Positions 28,430-50,243 of a DNA stretch of 64,000 nucleotides are shown piece after piece. Location: the NCBI GenBank assembly GCA_012840225.1, contig DULU01000066.1, positions 45,226 through 109,225 of the forward strand. The letters run 5' to 3'. A model generated the notes under the pieces. It was not told the DNA's origin, did not search any database, and saw nothing but the letters and a program-made list of their open reading frames with translations. Made by a program: the position numbers and the translations under genes. This DNA comes from Bacillota bacterium (lineage in GTDB: Bacteria; Bacillota; Limnochordia; DTU080). Within the stretch, counting starts at the first letter, position 1, and each line of letters starts with the position of its first letter.

Positions 28430-29476
28430 TTGCGTAAAAGTGTGATTCGGCTAAAGGATATTGCCCAGGCTTGCCATGTCTCTATTTCCACCGTTTCCCG
28501 GGCTTTGCGGGGAGATCCGCAAATTGCCGAGGAGACGCGTCTGCGTATTCAGGCGGAAGCCCGGCGCCAGCAATACAAAATCGATAAAAGCCGAGCCGTG
28601 AAAGAGCGGGAACCGGCCGGCCGCGGCTATGAAGACAGCTCCGGTTTAAGACGGCTGGTCGTGCTCATGCACGGCGAAAACATCCAACCATTTTTTGCGG
28701 AGACGTTGATAGAGATTGCGCATATCGCCGCCCGGTACCGGTTGACGACCGAATTTGTGCAAGCCAGAAGGGTGGATACCGTGGCGGCTTGCTTCGAGAA
28801 GGGGATGGCTGCACATCCCGATGCCATACTGTTTATCACCTGGTTGGATTCGGATGAGATAGACGTGGCGGTGATCCGCTCGTGCCGCGTGCCGGTCGTG
28901 CTTTTCAATCGGCATATTCCCGGAATAAGCAACGCCGTCACTCTGGACGATTTTGCCGCCGGAGTGCAGATGGCCCGTTACTTATATGATTTGGGTCATC
29001 GGCGCATCGCCCACCTGGCCGGGCCGGAAAACTCGTCCGCCGTGCGGGAGCGGGCCTGGGGTCTGCGCAGCGAGCTGGAACGTCTGGGCTGCTACGATCC
29101 GGAACTGTTTGAGCAGGTGCAATGCAGCCGGTATGTGGAGTCACTGCAGGAAGGTGTCAATAAGTTCATCAACATGGCTGCACCGGCGACGGCCATATGG
29201 GCGTATAACGATGCGGCAGCCGCCGTGGTGCTGAGCGCCGTGCATGCGGCCGGGCTCGCTGTGCCTGATGATATTTCTGTGGCCGGTTACGACTTTATGG
29301 CTCAGGTCGGCGATTTGAACCTCACTACCTTCGATTACCGCTTCGCGGCGATGGGACGGGTGGCGGTAAAGATGGTGACCGATCTGCTCATGGGCGATAT
29401 TGCGGGCCCATTGCGTTACTGCGTCGTTCCGACGCTCGTGGTGGGCGCAACCACTGGACCCGCTAAATTATCGTAA
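28430..29476 (+). CDS. LacI-family transcriptional regulator
   Basis: N-terminal HTH IRLKDIAQACHVSISTVSRALRG followed by a periplasmic-binding-fold effector domain. TTG 28430 is preceded by GAGGAGG 6 nt upstream. The track ORF starts at 28370. Confidence 0.8.
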   Translation: MRKSVIRLKDIAQACHVSISTVSRALRGDPQIAEETRLRIQAEARRQQYKIDKSRAVKEREPAGRGYEDSSGLRRLVVLMHGENIQPFFAETLIEIAHIAARYRLTTEFVQARRVDTVAACFEKGMAAHPDAILFITWLDSDEIDVAVIRSCRVPVVLFNRHIPGISNAVTLDDFAAGVQMARYLYDLGHRRIAHLAGPENSSAVRERAWGLRSELERLGCYDPELFEQVQCSRYVESLQEGVNKFINMAAPATAIWAYNDAAAAVVLSAVHAAGLAVPDDISVAGYDFMAQVGDLNLTTFDYRFAAMGRVAVKMVTDLLMGDIAGPLRYCVVPTLVVGATTGPAKLS

Positions 29477-29492
29477 TAAAAGGGGGATATGT

Positions 29493-30746
29493 ATGCGATT
29501 GACAAAGTTGACGGCGGCGTTATGCATGTTGGTGGTGTTGTTCAATATCGGTGCAGCTGCGGCGGAAACAACCAGATTGACTTTTTATTTCTGCTGCGCA
29601 CAAAAAGAACGGGCGGATATGTTCAATCGTTGGGCGCGTGATTTTGAGGCGGAAAACCCTGGTGTGATAGTGGAAGCGTTGTATCCGGTAGTCTCTGGAG
29701 AAAACTATTACGACAAAGTCAAGGTAGCCATTGCCAGCGATATGGCGCCCGACGTGATCTGGTCCGGCCTCGGGTTGTGGGGTTTTGCCGATCTGCTCTT
29801 GCCGCTGGACGACCTTTACGCCTCGGATCCCAACATCCGGGAGATCGTGCCGGCTATGATCAACAACCACCGTTGGCAAGGTCGCCTGATCGCCGTGCCG
29901 TTCGGTGTCAACGCCCATGTGGCTTACTACAACAAAGACTTATTGGGTGCCGCCGGTGTCATCATGCCGCCGGACTGGTCGTGGGATGAAGCGCTGGTCA
30001 TGACCAAGAAGATGACGCAGGACACCAACGGGGACCAGATCCCGGATATCTGGGGCATGGCTTTCAGCGAATCGGCGCATGCCCTGAACTATGGCGGCAA
30101 TGTGTATTCGGATGATATGCGCCGGGTGTTGATCGACAATCCGGTCACTATCGCCGGCATCCAGTTGACCTCCGATCTCATGACCGGCAAGATCGGCGGC
30201 TATTACCAATTGTCTTCGCCGGCGGTCTCGGCAGCCTTCTTAAACGGCATCATCGGTGTTCATACCAGAGGCGTGTTCGATATTCCGACTGTCAGGAATA
30301 ACGCCAAATTCGACTGGGATGTGACCACCTATCCCAAGCTGGTGCTGGATGGCCAGGAATACCGCACCGCCTACTTCTCCCAGGAAACCTGGACCATCTA
30401 CAAAGGCACCAAGCATCCGGATCTGGCCAAGAAATTTGTCAGCTTCATCATGCAAAGGGAGCGGATGGGTGAATTCGCCCAGCTTGGAGCGGTTATACCC
30501 ACTCAGCCCAGCGTGGCGGTCCGCTACTTCCTGAACGTCTCCACCCCTTCGAATATGAAGGCGTTCACCGATACACTCAACTGGTATAAAAATTCGGAGC
30601 GGCAGAACCCTGCCGGCTTGGTTATCGACAGCTTCCAAACCTGGAAAGATATCATCGCAGGCAGAATGTCGGCGGCCATCGGTGTGCCTGAGCTCGCCCG
30701 GCAAATGCAAGCCTTCCTCGATGATTACTGGAAAAACCGCAAGTAA
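29493..30746 (+). CDS. ABC transporter substrate-binding protein, family 1 (carbohydrate type)
   Basis: Signal peptide MRLTKLTAALCMLVVLFNIGAAAA, then …MAPDVIWSGLG… and C-terminal SBP motifs. AAAGGGGGA RBS. Confidence 0.85.
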   Translation: MRLTKLTAALCMLVVLFNIGAAAAETTRLTFYFCCAQKERADMFNRWARDFEAENPGVIVEALYPVVSGENYYDKVKVAIASDMAPDVIWSGLGLWGFADLLLPLDDLYASDPNIREIVPAMINNHRWQGRLIAVPFGVNAHVAYYNKDLLGAAGVIMPPDWSWDEALVMTKKMTQDTNGDQIPDIWGMAFSESAHALNYGGNVYSDDMRRVLIDNPVTIAGIQLTSDLMTGKIGGYYQLSSPAVSAAFLNGIIGVHTRGVFDIPTVRNNAKFDWDVTTYPKLVLDGQEYRTAYFSQETWTIYKGTKHPDLAKKFVSFIMQRERMGEFAQLGAVIPTQPSVAVRYFLNVSTPSNMKAFTDTLNWYKNSERQNPAGLVIDSFQTWKDIIAGRMSAAIGVPELARQMQAFLDDYWKNRK

Positions 30747-30860: not shown

Positions 30861-32705
30861 CTAGCTTGACTTGCCGGTGGCTTGGCCATCCGTTTCCATC
30901 GTCCAGGAGAGTTCATATAGGCGGGCATAATGGCCGCCCAAAGCCAGGAGGTCCTCGTGCCTCCCCTTCTCGATGATACGGCCGTTGTCCAGCACGAGGA
31001 TCAGATCGGCATGCTGGATGGTGGAGAGGCGGTGGGCGATGATCAAAGTGGTGCGCTCCTGGGAGATGCGCTTCAGCGCCGCCTGTACCAGGCTTTCGGT
31101 TTCCGTGTCGATATGGGCGGTAGCTTCGTCCAGGATCAGCACCGCCGGGTTGTGCGCCAGAGCTCTGGCAAAGCTGATCAGCTGGCGCTGGCCGGTGGAG
31201 AGGGTTAACCCGCCTTCATATAGCTTTTCGTAATAGCCGTCCGGCAGGCTTTCGATAAAGTCATGAATGCCGACGGCTTTGGCCGCGTTGCGCACCTCTT
31301 CCTCGCTGATGTCCGGGCGGCCCAGCCGGATGTTGTCGAGGATGGTGCCGGCAAAGAGAAACACATCCTGCTGCACGACGGCGATTTGCCGCCGCAGCTC
31401 ATGCTGGGTGACGTGGCGCACATCGATGCCGTCGATCAGGATCCGCCCTTTCTGCACATCATAAAGGCGGCTGATGAGATTGATGATCGAGCTTTTGCCG
31501 GCACCGGTGGCGCCGACGAAAGCCACCGTCTGCCCGGGTGCCACCGCAAAGCTGATATCCTTCAGCACCCAGTTATCCTCATTGTAGGCAAACCACACGT
31601 TTTGCACATCGATGCGCCCTTTGATGCGGCCGAGCCTGACAGGTTGGGGAGGATCGGCGATCTTGGGCTTTTCGTCCAAAATGTCCACCAGGTGCGCCGA
31701 GGCGGTGAGGGCGGCTTGAATGGTGCCCAGCTCATGGGTGAGATGGTGGATGGGCTGGTAAAGCTGACGGATATAGCTGATGAAGGCATATAAAGTCCCG
31801 GCGGGCACGAAGCCGCGCACCGCCTCGCCGCCGCCATACCAGATGACCAGAGTGACGGCTATCTGTCCCAGGAAGGTGAGCAGGTTGCTGTAGGAAACGG
31901 TTAAAGTGATCTCCTGCAGGTTGGCCTTGAGGTAATCGGTATTGATGTTTTTGAAGTTTTGCAGCTGCCGCGCTTCCCTGGTAAAAATCTGGATGGTGCG
32001 CATACCGGCCAGATTTTCCGCCAGGTAGGCATTGAGGCGGGCCAGGTGAAAGCGGGTGGTATCGTAAGCCCGGCGCATGATTTTCCTGAACCAGAAGGCG
32101 AAGGCGAAGATCAGCGGCAGCACCAGGAGGCTCACGGCCGCCAGGCGCGGATGCAGGCCGAACATGACCACGATGACGCCGGCGATGACGAATATGTCCC
32201 GCAAGGACTGCACCAGCATGCCCGAGAAAAGCTGGTTGATAGCCTCCGTATCGTTGCAGACCCTGGTGACCAGGCGGCCGACGGAATTATGGTCGTAATA
32301 GGACAGAGAGAGCTTCTGCAGGTGCCCGAAGACCGTCATGCGCAGGTTGAAGATGATGGTGCGGGCGATTTTCTGCAAGAGGTTGGCTTGGCTGTAATTG
32401 AGGATGAAAGCGGCTACCGACACCCCCAGATACATGAACATCAGCCTGATCAGGCCGGCCTGATCGGGATCGGGGACGTTGATGCAATTGTCGATGGCCA
32501 CCTTAAGCAGGTAAGGCTGGGCCAACTCGGCGCCGATGCCACCCAGGAGGAGCAGGACCGAGAGGATAAAGAGCTGCCAGTGCGGCACGGCGAAGGCGAG
32601 GATCCGTTTCAGCAGGCGGATGTCGCCGGCAGGAGCAGCCGGGGCGGCAGCAGAGGCTAAGGTGGCGCCGGTGGTTGGGGGAGGGGGAGCGTACATGCGG
32701 CTCAC
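30861..32705 (-). CDS. ABC exporter, fused permease-ATPase subunit (heterodimer partner 2; MsbA/BmrD-like)
   Basis: Six-TM N-terminal domain, then Walker A GATGAGKSS, signature LSTGQRQ and Walker B LILDEATA. The start overlaps the upstream partner's stop, consistent with translational coupling. Confidence 0.85.
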   Translation of the reverse strand: MSRMYAPPPPTTGATLASAAAPAAPAGDIRLLKRILAFAVPHWQLFILSVLLLLGGIGAELAQPYLLKVAIDNCINVPDPDQAGLIRLMFMYLGVSVAAFILNYSQANLLQKIARTIIFNLRMTVFGHLQKLSLSYYDHNSVGRLVTRVCNDTEAINQLFSGMLVQSLRDIFVIAGVIVVMFGLHPRLAAVSLLVLPLIFAFAFWFRKIMRRAYDTTRFHLARLNAYLAENLAGMRTIQIFTREARQLQNFKNINTDYLKANLQEITLTVSYSNLLTFLGQIAVTLVIWYGGGEAVRGFVPAGTLYAFISYIRQLYQPIHHLTHELGTIQAALTASAHLVDILDEKPKIADPPQPVRLGRIKGRIDVQNVWFAYNEDNWVLKDISFAVAPGQTVAFVGATGAGKSSIINLISRLYDVQKGRILIDGIDVRHVTQHELRRQIAVVQQDVFLFAGTILDNIRLGRPDISEEEVRNAAKAVGIHDFIESLPDGYYEKLYEGGLTLSTGQRQLISFARALAHNPAVLILDEATAHIDTETESLVQAALKRISQERTTLIIAHRLSTIQHADLILVLDNGRIIEKGRHEDLLALGGHYARLYELSWTMETDGQATGKSS

Positions 32706-34522
32706 GAAGCCGTCTCACCTCCGGAAATAAGCTCCGGGCGGTTGGTTTCGCCGGTGCCGTATAATTGCATTTCATATATATCCCGGTAGGTGCCGGGGAC
32801 GGAGATCAGCTCTTCATGCCGGCCTTGCTGCACGATGCGCCCCTCGTCCATGACGATGATGAAGTCGGCTTCCTTGATGGTGGAGATGCGGTGGGCGATG
32901 ATGATGGTAGTCTGCCGGCCCAACTGCTTTTGCAAGGCTTTCAGTATGGCCGCCTCGGTCTCGGTGTCCACGGCCGAGAAGCTGTCGTCCAGGATCATTA
33001 TTGGTGCGGCCTTGATGAGCGCCCTGGCTAAGGCCAGGCGCTGTTTTTGCCCACCGGAAAGGGTGACGCCGCGCTCGCCGATCTCCGTCTCGAAGCGTTT
33101 GGGAAAGTCCATGATGTTGTCGTAGAACTGGGCCTGTCGGGCGGCTTGGACAATCTCTTCCTCGCTTGGCCGGTCCACGCCGAAGGCGATGTTCTCCCTG
33201 ATGGTATCGGAGAAAAGGAAGATATCCTGCTGCACATAGGCGATCTGTTGCCGCAGGGTGAACAGGGGCAGATCGAGAATGTCGTGCCCGTCGATGAAGA
33301 TGCTGCCTCTCGGCGGGTCGTAGATGCGCAGCAGCAGATTGGCCAGGGTGCTTTTGCCTGCGCCGGTGTGCCCCAGGATGCCGACGGTTTGTCCAGCCTT
33401 GATCTGCACGTTGAAGTCGCTCAGGGCCGCTTTGGCGGTGCCCGGATAAGAGAAGGTCAACCCTTTTATCTCTATGTCGCCGTGCAGGCGCTCGACGGGC
33501 ACCGGGTGGGGGCTGTCCTTGATCTCAGGCTTGACAATCAAGAGATCGGTCAGCCGGCCTAAAGCGGCGCCGGCCCGCTGGGATTGGTCGATCACCTGGG
33601 CGATGCGCTGCATGGGGTTGATGAGCAGCACCAGGTAGGAGTTGAAGGCGATCAGGGAGCCGAGCGTCAGATCGCCGTTGATCACCCGTATGCCGCCGAG
33701 CCCGAGGGAGATGACAAAGGAGATGGCACCCACCAACTGCACTGCCGGGCTGAAGAGGGCGGCCACCAAGGTGAGCTGCAGGGTGCGGAGCACCACATTT
33801 TGGGCGGCATCCCGGAAGCGGCCGAGCTCCACTTCTTCGTTGGCATAGGCCTTCACCACCCTGATGCCGCTGATGCTTTCCTGCGTGCGCTCCGAAAGCA
33901 GGCTGAAGCTGTGCTGTACCGCCCGGGAGCGCTGTCGGATCAGCGGCCGGAGGTACGCCACGATCAAGGATAAAAACGGCATGGGGATCAAGCTGTATAG
34001 AGCCAGTTGCATGTCGACCGTGCCGATCATCATCGATACCGCCAGGATGATGGAGAAGACGGCGTTCACCACGTTCAGCAAGCCCGTGGAGATGAACATG
34101 CGCACCCCGTGCACGTCGTTCGTAGCATGGGCCATCAGATCGCCCACGCTGTGATGTGTGAAATAGTTAGCCGACAGCTTCTCCCAGTGGGCAAAGAGGA
34201 TATTGCGCAGGTAAAACTCGAATTGCCTGGCCCGGCGGTAGACCAAAGCATTGGCCGCCCAGGACAAAAAGAGGTAAAGCAAGGTAAAACCGCCCACTAA
34301 GCCGGCGTAATACAGCGGCTCGGCGGTCGTCAGGAGCCCCTCGACCAGCTGGTCGAAGAAGGTGCCGATCACTTTCGGGACGAGCATCTGGCTATAATTG
34401 GAGGCGATGATCAGCAGGGCGGCGGCGATATAAGTCCACTTATGCTTATTGAGAAATCCGATGAGGATGGCTTCGGCCGTGCGGACGTTCGATGTAGGTT
34501 TTCTGCGCTTGTTCACCTTCAT
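32702..34522 (-). CDS. ABC exporter, fused permease-ATPase subunit (heterodimer partner 1; BmrC-like)
   Basis: TMD followed by Walker A GHTGAGKST, signature LSGGQKQR and Walker B MILDDSFSAVD. Confidence 0.85.
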   Translation of the reverse strand: MKVNKRRKPTSNVRTAEAILIGFLNKHKWTYIAAALLIIASNYSQMLVPKVIGTFFDQLVEGLLTTAEPLYYAGLVGGFTLLYLFLSWAANALVYRRARQFEFYLRNILFAHWEKLSANYFTHHSVGDLMAHATNDVHGVRMFISTGLLNVVNAVFSIILAVSMMIGTVDMQLALYSLIPMPFLSLIVAYLRPLIRQRSRAVQHSFSLLSERTQESISGIRVVKAYANEEVELGRFRDAAQNVVLRTLQLTLVAALFSPAVQLVGAISFVISLGLGGIRVINGDLTLGSLIAFNSYLVLLINPMQRIAQVIDQSQRAGAALGRLTDLLIVKPEIKDSPHPVPVERLHGDIEIKGLTFSYPGTAKAALSDFNVQIKAGQTVGILGHTGAGKSTLANLLLRIYDPPRGSIFIDGHDILDLPLFTLRQQIAYVQQDIFLFSDTIRENIAFGVDRPSEEEIVQAARQAQFYDNIMDFPKRFETEIGERGVTLSGGQKQRLALARALIKAAPIMILDDSFSAVDTETEAAILKALQKQLGRQTTIIIAHRISTIKEADFIIVMDEGRIVQQGRHEELISVPGTYRDIYEMQLYGTGETNRPELISGGETAS

Positions 34523-34563: not shown

Positions 34564-35457
34564 CTAACCCGTGAGAGGCCGTTTGAGGTCGGGAAGAGGA
34601 CGCACCATCACATCGGCTTCCGGCAGCAGTTGCTGCACGGCGGCTTCCACATTTTGCAATACTCCGTCGGCGGCGCTTAAGTGCATATCCTTAGCCAACA
34701 CCACTTTGATGTCGACAAAGGCATGAGCGCCTGCCTGCCGGGCCCTCACCATGCGGCACTCTTGCACTCCTTCGATTTCCTGCACAGCTTCCTTTATGCG
34801 GGAAGACAAGCCTGGGGGGGCGGTGTCCAGCAGGGCTTCAATGGTGCGTTTGCCCAGGCGCAAGGTAGCAACGGCCACCAGAACGGCCACTCCCAAGGCG
34901 GCCAGCGGGTCGCCGGCCGGCCAGCCCAGCTTGACGAAGAGGAGACCGAGCAAGACCACTCCCGAACTCCAGATATCGCTACTGAAGTGCAGGGCGTCGG
35001 CCTCCAGCGCCTGGCTTCTGTAGCGGCGGGCCGCTTTATAGAGGTAGTGCGAACGGTTGATGTCCACGATGATGGAGAGAGCGATGACGGCAAAACTCCA
35101 GGCATTCACTTCCACCAGGTACTGGCCGCTGTGCAGGCGGGCGGCGGCCTCTTTGATGATGATGAAGCAGGTGAAAAGGAGGAGCATGGTCTCCAGGAGG
35201 GCGGAAAAATTTTCCACCTTGCCGTGGCCATAATTGTGCGTCTTATCGGCCGGTTTGCCGGCAATGCGCACAGCCAGTGCCGTCATCAAGGCGGCCGCCG
35301 TGTCCAGTCCGGAATGGGCGGCCTCAGACAAAATGCCTAGGCTACCGGTGGCGAAGCCGACGACAAATTTGATTATGGTAAGGAAAACAGCTGCTCCTAC
35401 AGAAACCCAGGCAACCTGCTCTTTTTCGTGGTTGGCCGGGCTTGATTGGTTGCTCAT
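34564..35457 (-). CDS. Cation diffusion facilitator (CDF) family metal efflux transporter
   Basis: CDF TM motifs (SLGILSEAAHSGLD, HFSSDIWSS) and a C-terminal cytoplasmic domain. ATG 35457 is preferred because AGAGGAG sits 7 nt upstream and a terminator hairpin lies just 5' of it. The track ORF runs to 35580 across the predicted leader. Confidence 0.75.
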   Translation of the reverse strand: MSNQSSPANHEKEQVAWVSVGAAVFLTIIKFVVGFATGSLGILSEAAHSGLDTAAALMTALAVRIAGKPADKTHNYGHGKVENFSALLETMLLLFTCFIIIKEAAARLHSGQYLVEVNAWSFAVIALSIIVDINRSHYLYKAARRYRSQALEADALHFSSDIWSSGVVLLGLLFVKLGWPAGDPLAALGVAVLVAVATLRLGKRTIEALLDTAPPGLSSRIKEAVQEIEGVQECRMVRARQAGAHAFVDIKVVLAKDMHLSAADGVLQNVEAAVQQLLPEADVMVRPLPDLKRPLTG

Positions 35458-35690
35458 AGCGATACTCCTCTTGCCAACGGGCGGACCGTCAACAAAAAAG
35501 ACCCGCTCCGTCGATGTAAATTTAGCAACGGAAGGGTCCCACAGGGCGCCGTTTTGGATGGGCGTTGCGGCTGTGGACAACGCGGCGGCACACCTGCTGC
35601 TTGTTTATTCCGACAAGCCCGGCTGCGGTAATGGTTACCCGCCTGCTCCAGATGCTATTATATTAACAACCGTTGTTATTGGTGTCAAGG
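35458..35690 (-). promoter_or_regulatory. Promoter plus ~190-nt structured leader for the CDF / ABC-exporter operon (candidate riboswitch)
   Basis: On the minus strand, TTGACA-17 bp-TAATAT gives a near-consensus sigma-70 promoter (top-strand 35659-35687). It is followed by a long GC-rich leader with several hairpins and a terminator-like stem with a U-run immediately before the RBS. Confidence 0.45.
35491..35540 (-). terminator. Leader attenuator (intrinsic terminator hairpin) directly upstream of the CDF start
   Basis: On the minus strand, GGGACCCTTCCGT…ACGGAGCGGGTC (a ~12-bp stem) is followed by TTTTTTGTT. It ends about 30 nt before the ATG. Confidence 0.5.
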
Positions 35691-35952
35691 TAATCACGGA
35701 AAAATTATAAATAATTAAGTTAACTTGAGACTGATAATCATTCTCTGCTAGACTCAGGGACAAACGTATGCTCCTCATCGTGCCCATCCACCCGCACCAG
35801 CAAACGGGGGTGCGGGAGCGTTGCAAGATGTTGATCTTCAGGTGAATCCCCAGAATTGGCAATGTAAATATGGGTGTGCATTCCGGTTTGGCAACCGTGC
35901 ATTTCCGTGCTTGTGCAACGTGATGCATCTAACGTGTATGTGCGTTGACATC

Positions 35953-35969: not shown

Positions 35970-36184
35970 AAGGACAAAAGGGAAACAGTAGAAACATGGT
36001 GAATGCATATGTGTTCAACTGCCGAGGTGTCGGACATAAGCCAAAAACCTCAACCGTCGCTTCGGCTGTCGATGCGCGAAAGGATGGTGGTGTTGTCAGG
36101 ATTATAGCTGCAAGACATGGACTTTACTAGGCAAAAGGTTTGTTGTCGTCCGGCATTTATTTTTTGTAAATGGAGGTAACATCC

Positions 36185-37462
36185 ATGATAAAACGTCTAG
36201 TAGTCTTAATGCTGTTTTGTTCGGTGATTTTATCTGCTCACGGTGCAAGCGCGGCCACAAACACCCTGACTTTGATGCTTTATTCGGATGGCGACAAGAA
36301 ATACTTTGCTCCGAGTATAGAACGATTTGAGAGAGACCATCCCGGAGTGAAAGTTGATGTTATCATGGAATCGGCGAATTATCAAGAAAAAGTGTTGACC
36401 ATGGTAGCTACCGGTGTTGCCCCGGATGTGGTGACAGGTTCATCTGATGGAAACTTTCTTGAATGGCTGCTGGACGGGGTGGTTATCGATGTCGCCCCCT
36501 ATGTGGAGCGGGATGCGGCCTTTTTTAAGGACTGGATTCCGGAGTATCGCCTGCGTACATATTATAAAGGTCGTTCTTTTGGTGTAGCACACGTGCGTGC
36601 CGGTCTCTACCCCCTCTGGTTCAACAGGCGGCTCTTTGATGCTGCTGGTGTATCGTACCCGAATGGTGAATGGACTTGGGATGCTTTCTTGCAGGCAGCG
36701 AGCAAAATGAGCATTGACACCAACGGTGACGGGCAAAAGGACCAGTATGGTTGGCACCACGCCTGGAAGACGTGGGTCCCCTTCCTTTATAACGGTGGCG
36801 GCGGCATCCAAGATCCTAACGACCCCGGCAAAATACTGCTGGATTCTCAGGCTACCATCGAAGCGTTGGCCTTTCTGCAGGATATGGATTTCAAGTACGG
36901 CGCGTCGACTCCCAACCACAACTTCAACGGCAGTCGGGCCAATACGGCCTTCTTTAACGGCAAGGCGGCAATGATCATCAGGTCTGTCAGCCTATACGGC
37001 GGCGCGCCTGAACATATGAAAGATGGCCAAACCCTCGGATTGGCCCTGGCTCCCAAGGCGCCCAACGGCAAATCTCACACCATGATAACCATAGGCGCTT
37101 TCGGCATCACCAAGGCTTCCAAAAATAAGGAACTGGCTTGGGAGCTTATCAAGTATATGGTCGACGAGGAGTCGCAGCGCTACCACAAGGTGAATACCGG
37201 CTGCCTGACCACAAACCACAAGATCAACCAGGAGTATTTCCCAAGTGGTCTGCCGGTGTGGAACCACGACAAGGCGGTTTTGCAGATGGTGCAACTACCC
37301 ATGTTCACCGTAGACTACATGATGCCCACTTCGGCTATAACCATTATGGAGACCATGGTCAATGCCGTTGTCAACAAAAACGAGATGTCGCCCAGGATGG
37401 GTATTGAGGCTTATATGCCGCTAATAAAAGATGCCATGCAGGATTTTTTGGCGAAACTATAA
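36185..37462 (+). CDS. ABC transporter substrate-binding protein, family 1 (carbohydrate type); lower GC than neighbours
   Basis: Signal peptide MIKRLVVLMLFCSVILSAHGASAA, then …GVAPDVVTGS… and C-terminal SBP motifs. GGAGGT RBS 7 nt upstream of ATG 36185. GC is visibly lower (about 50%). Confidence 0.8.
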   Translation: MIKRLVVLMLFCSVILSAHGASAATNTLTLMLYSDGDKKYFAPSIERFERDHPGVKVDVIMESANYQEKVLTMVATGVAPDVVTGSSDGNFLEWLLDGVVIDVAPYVERDAAFFKDWIPEYRLRTYYKGRSFGVAHVRAGLYPLWFNRRLFDAAGVSYPNGEWTWDAFLQAASKMSIDTNGDGQKDQYGWHHAWKTWVPFLYNGGGGIQDPNDPGKILLDSQATIEALAFLQDMDFKYGASTPNHNFNGSRANTAFFNGKAAMIIRSVSLYGGAPEHMKDGQTLGLALAPKAPNGKSHTMITIGAFGITKASKNKELAWELIKYMVDEESQRYHKVNTGCLTTNHKINQEYFPSGLPVWNHDKAVLQMVQLPMFTVDYMMPTSAITIMETMVNAVVNKNEMSPRMGIEAYMPLIKDAMQDFLAKL

Positions 37463-37691
37463 GCTAAATGGCGGTTTTCACATAGATCATTTCCCTAGCT
37501 ATAGGAGGCGTCGCTGGAGGAAGCGCTTGGCTCTGCCGGGCGCTTCCGCCGTTGCGGGCCTCCATTTGTATGGGCTTCCATTTGTATGCGGTAGCGGTGC
37601 CCGGCAGGGGAGGATTTTCCATCTATAAAGCCAATAATAACGTAATTAACCAGATTGGCGATTATTATGGGTATTGTTGAGGATGGTGGTT

Positions 37692-38687
37692 ATGAGCGAG
37701 AAGGTGAATATAAGAAAGCTGGCCGAGTTGGCCGGAGTTTCCGTGGCTACGGTATCCAGGGTGTTGAACGGCAAGGCAGGCGTCAGCGAGAAGACGCGGC
37801 GCCAGGTGATCGAGTATATGCATGAGCTGAACTATCGCCCGCCGGTCATCCTCAACCGTGGTGAGACCATCGGTCTGGTGGTGTTTCCCAATATGGAAAT
37901 ATTCCTCACCGATTTCTTTGCCGATCTGTTGCAGGGCCTGACCGAGGAGACTTTCCGCCGCGGGCAGCAGCTGATGCTCATGCGCTTGAACACCGGGGAC
38001 CTGACCGAGGATATCATGGGTCACTACATGCGCTCACATGGACTGTGCGGTTACATCATTCTCGGAACCACCCTCACCACCCAGGAAGCCGAACAGCTGG
38101 CGAAAGTGGAAGTGCCCTATGTGGTCACGGGCGGTGCATACCTGCCTGAAAACATCAACTGGGTCGGCTATGATCACATCGGCGCCGGGCGGGATATGGC
38201 CCGTTATGTGCTGTCCTTGCGCCACCGGCACATCGCTGCCGTCGGCCGGACGGAGGGGCGTCCGGTCGGAGCCGCCCACCTGCAGGGCATCAACGAAGAG
38301 CTGGCCAAAAACGGCCTGGAACTTTGGGGAGGTGCGCCCGTCGCTCCCCACCCCAAGGAATGCCGGCGCCTGTTGGAGGAGAGTCAAGCCACCGGTAAAC
38401 CGACGACCATCATCGGGCTCTCCCAGGAGGACGGCTTGCTGATCGTCTCCGAGTTGACCAAGATGGGACTGCGCCTGCCTACCGACATCAGTGTGGCCGC
38501 CTTTGGCGATTACCATTCGATTCAGTGGGTGGAGCCCAAGCTGACCACCATGCGGGTACCCACCGGGGAAATCGGCAGCAAATCCATCAACCTGTTGCTG
38601 GATCTGGCTGCCGGCTGGAGCGAGCGGCCCGTGCGCCATCAGTTCTCGCCGCAGTTGGTGCTGAGGGATTCGGTGGGGGCCATATAG
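37692..38687 (+). CDS. LacI-family transcriptional regulator
   Basis: N-terminal HTH NIRKLAELAGVSVATVSRVLNG followed by a sugar-binding domain. ATG 37692; the track ORF starts at 37674. Confidence 0.85.
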   Translation: MSEKVNIRKLAELAGVSVATVSRVLNGKAGVSEKTRRQVIEYMHELNYRPPVILNRGETIGLVVFPNMEIFLTDFFADLLQGLTEETFRRGQQLMLMRLNTGDLTEDIMGHYMRSHGLCGYIILGTTLTTQEAEQLAKVEVPYVVTGGAYLPENINWVGYDHIGAGRDMARYVLSLRHRHIAAVGRTEGRPVGAAHLQGINEELAKNGLELWGGAPVAPHPKECRRLLEESQATGKPTTIIGLSQEDGLLIVSELTKMGLRLPTDISVAAFGDYHSIQWVEPKLTTMRVPTGEIGSKSINLLLDLAAGWSERPVRHQFSPQLVLRDSVGAI

Positions 38688-48938: not shown

Positions 48939-50243
48939 ATGGAGGCGCAGCCGCAGATGAACAAGGAGCAAAAAGACCTCGTCCCACCGCAGCCGGAGCT
49001 GGGGGGAGGAAATGAGCAGGACTATATCTTTGCCGAGTATTATGTCAGCAGCCCTTCGGGGAGAGATGTCATGGACTTGGCCCGGCGCTTTGCCGTGGGG
49101 CAGACCGTAGGTACCTGGATGGAGCTCCCCGGCTTGACGGCGGAGATCAGAGCCCGGCATCAGGGACAGGTGGTGGATGTGCTGGAGCTGCCACCACGGC
49201 GAGATGCCGGCGGCGGGGTGAGCGAATATCTCCTGCAAGTGGCCTATCCCTGGCGCAATTTCGACGACAGCATCAGCATGCTTTTTACCACCCTCATCGG
49301 CAACGATACCTCTACTGCCTTACCTGTTAAGCTCGTCGATTTGACCTTCCCCGAGGCCTATGCCAGGCAGTTTCCCGGGCCGCGGTACGGACTGGCCGGC
49401 TGGCGGCAGCTCGCCGGGGTGAGTGAGAGGCCGCTGGTGCTGAACATGATCAAACCATGTGTCGGTCTGAGCCCGGCCGAAGGCGCGGCTATCTTCTATG
49501 AGACGGCCCTGGGCGGGGTGGACTTCATCAAGGACGACGAATTGCTCGGCGACACCTCTTTCTCGCCGCTTGAGGAGAGAACGAAAGCCTATGTGGCCGC
49601 CGCCCGCCGGGCTGAAGAGGAAACGGGGAAAAGGGTACATTATGTGGCCAACGTGACCGGGCGGCCGGAGCGCCTCAAGGAGCGCGCCCGTCGGGCGGTG
49701 GCGGCCGGGGCCGGCGCCGTGATGGTCAACTGGCTCTTTACCGGTCCCGATGCCTTGGTGGATCTGGTGGCGGATGGGGAGATCAATGTGCCTGTGCTGG
49801 CCCATTGCGCCGGCACCGGACTTTACCTGGATTCGCTGGCCGGAGGGGTGGCCTCACGGGTGCTCTTCGGCCGTCTGGCCAGGCTGGCCGGCGCCGATGC
49901 CGTCATTTTCTGCACACCCATGAGCGGCGGCGGCATCACCAAGAGCGAGTTCCTGAAGACCGCCCATTATCTGCGATCACCGCACAGCTGCCACCGGCCC
50001 AGCCTGCCGGTGGTGGGAGGTGGAGCGACACCCGGGCAGTTGCCGGTGATTGCCGGTGATATCGGCCTCGACGTGATGATCGCCGCCGGCGGCGCGGTGC
50101 AGGGCCATCCCATGGGTGCCAAGGCCGGAGCCAAAGCTATGATGGCGGCGGCGGAAGCCGTGGCTCGCGGCCTCTCATTGGCCGAGGTGCAGAAGGAGTC
50201 TCCGGAGCTCGCCGCCGCTTTGCAATTGTGGGGCGGGCTATGA
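48939..50243 (+). CDS. RuBisCO large-subunit-like protein (form IV RLP)
   Basis: NMIKPCVGLS is the K175 equivalent at residue 172. GGVDFIKDDE supplies the K201/D203/E204 equivalents at residues 198-201. The C-terminal glycine loop VVGGGATPG is present. Alternative start ATG 48957, which lies 11 nt after GGAGG. Confidence 0.85.
   Translation: MEAQPQMNKEQKDLVPPQPELGGGNEQDYIFAEYYVSSPSGRDVMDLARRFAVGQTVGTWMELPGLTAEIRARHQGQVVDVLELPPRRDAGGGVSEYLLQVAYPWRNFDDSISMLFTTLIGNDTSTALPVKLVDLTFPEAYARQFPGPRYGLAGWRQLAGVSERPLVLNMIKPCVGLSPAEGAAIFYETALGGVDFIKDDELLGDTSFSPLEERTKAYVAAARRAEEETGKRVHYVANVTGRPERLKERARRAVAAGAGAVMVNWLFTGPDALVDLVADGEINVPVLAHCAGTGLYLDSLAGGVASRVLFGRLARLAGADAVIFCTPMSGGGITKSEFLKTAHYLRSPHSCHRPSLPVVGGGATPGQLPVIAGDIGLDVMIAAGGAVQGHPMGAKAGAKAMMAAAEAVARGLSLAEVQKESPELAAALQLWGGL

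Follow-up and report, generated by a model that had tools for sequence, protein, structure and literature searches.

The minus strand of the window, the 64-kb stretch of DNA analysed here, carries a CDF metal-efflux gene behind a long structured leader, and the question that this locus raises is whether the leader is a metal-sensing riboswitch. The first-pass annotation, made from the sequence alone, had proposed that it is. A match to the NiCo clan of RNA families, a match to a second covariance model built from related leaders, and an overlap between terminator and aptamer all support that proposal, and the call proved correct. With a probability of about 0.85, we read the leader as a riboswitch of the NiCo/czcD class that would serve a metal-efflux operon as a transcriptional ON switch.

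The promoter, terminator and translation start were located first on the minus strand, to which all positions in the leader refer. The promoter had been described as near consensus, and it is: the sigma-70-type site (35660..35688) consists of TTGACA (35688-35683), a 17-nt spacer with a TG extension and TAATAT (35665-35660), and agrees with the consensus at 10 of 12 positions. Promoters of the form TTGACA/TTGACT-17-TATCAT/TAGGAT occupy the same position in three of the related leaders introduced below (L081, L082 and L084), at the same distance from helix P1 of the aptamer as in the window. A perfect TATAAT (35657-35662, minus strand) overlaps the called -10 element at an offset of 3 nt, with a spacer of 20 nt to TTGACA, and the start of transcription is therefore uncertain by a few bases. 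From the likely start near 35653 to the ATG at 35457 the leader measures about 196 nt with 62% G+C, in keeping with the GC-rich leader that had been reported. The minimum free energy of the leader is weak evidence by itself (z-score -2.17).

An intrinsic terminator had also been called, and folding with ViennaRNA recovered it (35494..35540): GGGACCCTTCCGT (35540-35528) pairs with ACGGAGCGGGTC (35511-35500) and is followed by U6 (35499-35494). The stem, with GGGACCCUUCCGU as the 5' arm and ACGGAGCGGGUC as the 3' arm, has 15 pairs and a free energy of -19.5 kcal/mol. A simple terminator scan did not call this hairpin because its loop of 12-16 nt exceeds the 8-nt limit of the scan. The spacing between terminator and ribosome binding site (RBS), put at about 30 nt in the first-pass annotation, needs correction, as only 22 nt separate the end of the U-run from the RBS AGAGGAG (35471-35465). 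The start codon is ATG (35457-35455), and the RBS and start (together 35455..35471) are supported by the sequence, by the start of the identical public protein P0001 and by the N-termini of homologues. In the read-through RNA a G-U-rich hairpin of 13 pairs is predicted at 35468-35498 (minus strand), in which the terminator U-run and GUUGACGG pair with CCGUUGGCAAGAG, the latter strand spanning the first four bases of the RBS. This hairpin could damp translation, or it could have arisen by chance.

At gathering thresholds, no Rfam family matched anywhere in the 64-kb window. In a permissive scan of 35400-35760, NiCo-AnGGAG (RF03164), a family of the NiCo clan (CL00122), matched over model positions 1-89 of 89 with 35.4 bits and an E-value of 3.5e-6. 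A weaker match of the same clan that overlapped this one was suppressed in the scan, so that the score for canonical NiCo (RF02683) is at most 35.4 bits, just below its cut-off of 37. The proposed kinship with NiCo/czcD RNAs was thus borne out in that a clan member matched at full length, while the curated cut-offs were not reached (35.4 bits against 37 for NiCo and against 64.5 for NiCo-AnGGAG). A gathering threshold is an operational cut-off and not a biological feature, and the low score is attributed to an insertion in helix P4 that is described below. Neither the curated nor the permissive scan gave a match to the yybP-ykoY family in the window.

Related leaders were sought through the CDF protein. 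The window CDF is identical to the public protein P0001 from a Firmicutes/Bacillota metagenome-assembled genome (MAG), and the next-closest relatives share 66%, 65%, 60% and 59% identity; the databases searched contained no relative between 66% and the identical protein. Three of these four lie on short contigs and have a homologous leader (L081, L082 and L084). A genome scan with the CDF protein returned 80 loci with at most 56% identity, mostly from Bacteroidota and Ignavibacteria. A first regular expression found no riboswitch among these 80 loci; a looser expression together with the covariance model R1, described below, recovered four: L066, a Clostridia MAG locus that likewise has a homologous leader, and L014, L041 and L069. 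Rfam NiCo scores were 61.7 bits for L066, 45.1 for L082, 37.1 for L081 and 26.1 for L084, to be read against the cut-off of 37.

Model R1 was built from L082, L066 and L084 only, with the window excluded and with a hand-written structure. MAFFT put P3 and P4 of the leaders in the wrong place, and its alignments were set aside; R1 was instead obtained from three well-aligned sequences, followed by Infernal's own alignment. When both strands of the 64-kb window were searched, R1 gave a single significant match, at 35656-35532 (45.7 bits, E-value 2e-11). The next best match, at 49672-49750 (12.9 bits, E-value 0.12), was taken as noise. As the window did not contribute to the model, this result establishes homology to NiCo riboswitches independently of the Rfam thresholds.

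R1 also located NiCo-like aptamers directly 5' of the CDF homologues in L014 (2370-2450), L041 (2298-2366) and L069 (2384-2453), whose hosts are a Thermodesulfobacteriota MAG, an unclassified MAG and a Candidatus Edwardsbacteria MAG, respectively. These score under the Rfam NiCo cut-off (34.5, 25.9 and 30.1 bits), and in L041 and L069 P3 keeps only about 2 bp and J1/2 has an altered sequence (AUCA/UCA). The loci of five other CDF homologues with 54-59% identity (P0004, P0010, P0012, P0016 and P0021) have no NiCo-like leader. A metagenome search with the pattern GGAGCAGGCG-gap-GGGC-gap-GCAGCAG gave no NiCo leader among the matches listed, which were chance-like and rich in G+C. Two Desulfosporosinus loci carry cobalamin riboswitches (L070 4039-4228, 101.7 bits; L071 4037-4225, 113.7 bits) about 680 nt past the CDF match on its downstream side; the CDF genes at these loci have no NiCo-like leader.

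End-to-end alignments to RF03164 and R1, folding and covariation define the aptamer in the window as a four-way junction of helices P1-P4 (35534..35650). P1 is formed by UGG (35650-48) and CCC (35536-34), giving two G-C pairs and a U-C mismatch. The alignments and folds place the remaining elements in the order J1/2 (AGCA, 35647-44), P2 (35643-21), J2/3 (GG, 35620-19), P3 (35618-599), J3/4 (A, 35598), P4 (35597-541) and J4/1 (GGGA, 35540-37), and the 3' end of the aptamer lies 77 nt from the CDF ATG. P2, P3 and P4 account for the nested hairpins that had been noticed in the leader. The four helices follow the order of the NiCo family, and each folds separately. The junction strings GAGCAGGC, CCGGGC, GCAGCAG and GUGGGAC are exactly those of the NiCo consensus, and J1/2 AGCA, the GGG at 35620-18 (J2/3 and the first G of P3) and J4/1 GGGA match its metal-binding positions. 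A simulation study of the NiCo structure 4RUM gives junction residues A9, G40-42 and G82-83 as inner-sphere metal ligands, and NiCo helices contact one another only through the junction (bioRxiv 10.1101/2025.08.02.668262). We infer the corresponding ligands in the window by mapping the 4RUM numbering onto its junction sequence.

Covariation argues for the same structure. Across eight aligned leaders, 94.7% of the cells were paired, and compensatory changes were found in 15 of 24 base pairs. None of 500 shuffled controls reached the observed level, and slid controls gave 26-55%. Because the eight leaders were aligned by fitting to the model, the comparison is biased towards the structure; the margin over the controls is nevertheless large.

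The aptamer and the terminator share a segment, GGGACCC, which forms J4/1 and the 3' strand of P1 in the former and the start of the 5' arm in the latter, and the two folds therefore exclude each other. A platform of mutually exclusive terminator and antiterminator structures had been envisaged for the leader; terminator and aptamer do exclude each other, while no separate antiterminator hairpin was found. With GGGACCC withheld from pairing, only a 7-bp hairpin was left in place of the terminator, with GCGGGUC between this hairpin and the U-run. Hairpins with a U-run that overlap J4/1, P1 or the 3' strand of P4 are present in six of the seven related leaders. The minimum-free-energy fold of the window leader combines P2, P3 and P4 with the terminator, and enforcing P1 with an unpaired junction costs 15 kcal/mol relative to this terminator state in nearest-neighbour energies. 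The switch would consequently rely on metal binding and tertiary energy, both of which lie outside the nearest-neighbour model. In the published ON-switch logic of NiCo RNAs, metal stabilizes the junction and formation of the terminator is prevented (PMC9389577; bioRxiv 10.1101/2025.08.02.668262). By analogy with these known switches, the metal-stabilized aptamer itself would be the antiterminator.

The proposed mechanism runs as follows. Transcription would start a few bases 5' of P1. With metal absent, GGGACCC would pair downstream, and the 15-bp terminator followed by U6 would stop transcription short of the CDF gene. Once a divalent transition metal builds up in the cytoplasm, its ions would bind to conserved guanines and a conserved adenine of the four-way junction, the likely sites being J2/3 GG with the first G of P3, J4/1 GGGA and J1/2 AGCA. 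Bound metal would lock the junction and P1 and thereby keep GGGACCC from the terminator, allowing RNA polymerase to read on into the CDF gene and then the pair of ABC genes behind it. P4 would be folded with and without metal and would touch the remaining RNA solely through the junction.

P4 is the one element that departs strongly from the family. It measures 57 nt in the window, where a 47-nt extension (35546..35592), seen in the folds and as an insertion relative to both the Rfam model and R1, replaces the usual loop of 4-8 nt. The conserved 5-bp base P4a (GCAGG/CCUGU) is kept; above it follow a U bulge, a 6-bp P4b, an internal loop of 2x10 nt, a 7-bp P4c and the 8-nt loop CCACAGCC. The extension amounts to an insertion of 38 nt relative to the Rfam model, in which the P4 loop has 5 nt, and of 46 nt relative to R1. 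It is absent from all seven related leaders, in which P4 is a short hairpin, of 14-18 nt where measured (L066, L081 and L082). The insert is identical in three assemblies, one of them from an independent JGI sample, and is therefore not an assembly artefact; the JGI-sample assembly differs at 24 positions over 12.9 kb, with no difference in the 346-nt leader. An origin of the insert as a repeat or mobile element was ruled out, as only chance matches of 8-13 nt were found elsewhere in the window or in the loci, and so was an unusually stable structure (z-score -1.56 against shuffled sequences). A NiCo riboswitch into whose P4 the Broccoli aptamer had been inserted kept cooperative binding of Co2+, with an EC50 of 0.84 uM and a Hill coefficient of 1.9 (PMC7962493). 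From this precedent, and because P4 is folded in both states, we take the extension to be a peripheral decoration that the RNA tolerates, although a role for it is also possible.

The same features could be taken as marks of decay, with the P4 insertion and the minimal P1 having abolished switching and left a constitutive attenuator, so that regulation would fall to the promoter and to the Fur-like box described below. Rfam scores below the cut-offs, a P1 of just two G-C pairs, the 15 kcal/mol lead of the terminator state in nearest-neighbour energies and an insert whose fold is no better than chance would all fit such an account. All junction nucleotides are intact, however, and P4a is kept beneath the insertion; relatives with an equally short P1 exceed the Rfam cut-off; the construct with Broccoli in P4 still binds metal (PMC7962493); and none of the 24 substitutions between the two assemblies over 12.9 kb falls in the leader. 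Taken together, these observations make a decayed switch unlikely. Membership in the NiCo-AnGGAG variant class, with a ligand unlike that of canonical NiCo, is more improbable still. RF03164 is the top-scoring family, it shares a long P4 with the window (10 bp in the model), and the P2 3' strand CGCAGCC is the exact AnGGAG consensus (cGcAGCC), but 35.4 bits is far under the cut-off of 64.5, and the absorption of part of the long P4 by the 10-bp P4 of the model is probably the sole reason for the top score. At the two discriminating junction positions the window has G for the AnGGAG consensus A (CAGGC against CAAGC, GGGAC against GAGAC) and is thus NiCo-type, with GAGCAGGC and not GAaCAAGC, and GUGGGAC and not GuGAGAC. 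The orthologous leaders, moreover, match NiCo instead. A literature search found no description of the NiCo-AnGGAG motif.

It is also conceivable that no riboswitch is present, and that the region is a protein-dependent or leader-peptide attenuator or encodes a genuine extension of the CDF protein at its N-terminus. The frame is indeed open from TTG 35580 into the CDF gene, and some gene callers place a 50-aa antisense gene here, with no Pfam hit, at 35558-35710 of the plus strand (5748-5900 in L212/L213). This antisense gene is part of a 158-aa plus-strand open reading frame (35234-35710) and is almost certainly spurious. As for the extension, the 41 residues from TTG 35580 have no counterpart in six homologues, all of which start within about 10 residues of a conserved EK motif, with N-termini that align at ATG 35457. 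P0001 (297 aa, 100% identity and coverage) begins at this same ATG, which has a good RBS. The extension would also traverse the terminator and its U-run and would sit in a region with RNA-type covariation. The extended frame was accordingly judged an artefact, as had been suspected, and we give this last alternative very little credence. The refuting conditions named in the first-pass annotation left its reading standing, and the leader is best read as a member of the NiCo/czcD class.

The gene that this riboswitch would control (34564..35457, minus strand) encodes a CDF protein of 297 aa, identified by Pfam and NCBIfam matches and by motifs (Pfam Cation_efflux, 2.9e-42, and ZT_dimer). It is FieF/MamB/MntE-like: NCBIfam scores were 166 bits for FieF, 152 for MamB, 145 for MntE, 79 for ZitB and 49 for DmeF, all below the equivalog cut-offs. 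The motifs AAHSGLD and LHFSSD are present, and metal site A is of the HD-HD type. Zinc CDFs also carry HD-HD at site A. This motif has been discussed previously (PMC9993123). The CDF gene had been described as heading an operon with ABC exporter genes, and this arrangement was confirmed: after a gap of 41 nt follow two half-transporter genes of 606 and 614 aa (30861..34522, minus strand), each with ABC_membrane and ABC_tran domains, which overlap by 4 nt. No terminator-like or promoter-like site was seen in the 41-nt gap, and the ABC genes are probably co-transcribed with the CDF gene. The ABC pair resembles exporters of the SmdAB/MsbA/CydDC type, with all scores below equivalog cut-offs. In L081 (1721-1987) the gene behind the CDF gene has an N-terminus that shares 51% identity with the first ABC gene, so that the linkage of CDF and ABC genes is kept; L082 does not keep it, its downstream gene having an agarase-CBM-like domain. 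The operon lies amid sugar-uptake genes (29400-30746 and 36170-38687, L211 table), namely those for two solute-binding proteins and for LacI-family regulators, and stands alone as a metal-efflux unit outside any metal-resistance island.

A further conserved element was found 38 bp upstream of the -35 hexamer, where an imperfect 19-bp palindrome resembling a Fur box (35727..35745; GAGAATGATTATCAGTCTC on the minus strand) agrees with the classic Fur box in 16 of its 19 positions. Two Fur patterns were used, the 19-bp inverted repeat GATAATGATWATCATTATC and the 7-1-7 motif TGATAATNATTATCA, the window offering no further gene under Fur control for calibration. Read on either strand, the palindrome fits its own pattern; no other such site occurs in 64 kb (expected number 0.00), and the palindrome's score on the 7-1-7 motif is 12/14. 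Under matching scoring, a hand count gave 15/18 for the box in the window, against at most 14/18 in about 160 control regions, each 330 nt long. The box is conserved in L081, L082 and L084 despite differing flanks and divergent genes, which are CorA-like in L081 and FG-GAP in L082, with none called in L084 or the window; between 22 and 38 bp separate it from the -35 hexamer. L066, L014, L041 and L069 lack the box, nor does it characterize the wider CDF clade, since only one of 79 other upstream regions reached even 14/18. A weak plus-strand promoter-like site (TTGAGA-18-TAGACT, 35725-35754; 9/12) overlaps the box and points into a 420-nt spacer of low G+C content, in which a 25-aa open reading frame (35768-35845) is the only one before the sugar-binding-protein gene at 36170. 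No trace of the divergent genes seen in L081 and L082 was found in the window. A role of the box in divergent transcription is possible.

These observations bear on the identity of the metal. In czcD riboswitches from three organisms, Fe2+, Co2+ and Ni2+ were bound at about 1 uM, of which only the Fe2+ value is physiological (PMC9389577); a 2024 review called the metal selectivity of the NiCo/czcD class unsettled (PMC11672702). The FieF-like pump and the Fur-like box lean towards iron, and we judge Fe2+ to be the most likely metal, with Co2+ and Ni2+ possible. In Bacillus subtilis the iron-efflux gene pfeT is switched on at iron excess with Fur as a direct activator (PMC9993123), which provides a precedent for a Fur-like site at an efflux gene. 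In the window, a Fur-like box lies upstream of the -35 element of an FieF-like efflux gene; the pump, however, is a CDF protein and not a P1B4 ATPase, the second layer of control would be a riboswitch and not PerR, and the Fur site is putative. Two iron sensors may be stacked at this locus, a Fur-family protein acting on the palindrome at initiation, for example by activation as at pfeT, and the riboswitch acting at elongation. This dual arrangement is a tentative idea that we consider somewhat doubtful. The box and the riboswitch co-occur in the window and in three related leaders, in each case before a FieF-like pump.

Comparison with characterized systems places the leader close to canonical NiCo (RF02683; structure 4RUM, Erysipelotrichaceae bacterium). 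Both have the same P1-P4 four-way junction with identical junction sequences, both precede a metal-efflux gene within its 5' leader, and each has a terminator in competition with the aptamer's 3' part, as in an ON switch; the window, too, comes from an anaerobe-type Firmicutes genome, from a biogas fermenter. The window leader differs in a P4 of 57 nt against about 14-24 nt, in a P1 of only 2-3 pairs, in a mismatch flanked by bulges at the fourth pair of P2 and in a score just under the cut-off. Its terminator invades J4/1 and P1 only, whereas the published NiCo switching strand (C74-A84) and the hairpins of L066, L014 and L069 invade the 3' strand of P4 as well. The yybP-ykoY manganese riboswitch is likewise a metal-sensing ON switch before efflux genes with a terminator platform (PMC9389577), but has an unrelated fold and senses another metal.

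The leader thus adds one more member to the known NiCo/czcD class, one with a structural peculiarity at its periphery, and its novelty is modest. Its natural 47-nt extension agrees with the experimental tolerance of P4 to large inserts, and it exposes a blind spot of annotation, in that an insertion in a single peripheral stem drops a real riboswitch under the Rfam cut-off. Three more sub-cut-off NiCo-like leaders lie by related pumps in non-Firmicutes genomes, and counts of the class in environmental genomes are therefore probably too low. The most interesting lead suggested by these comparisons is the pairing of a conserved Fur-like operator with the riboswitch before a FieF-like pump, which offers a convenient natural test case for in vivo iron sensing by this class. 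If true, the pairing would be independent genomic evidence for Fe2+, as opposed to Ni2+ or Co2+, as the physiological ligand of the class.
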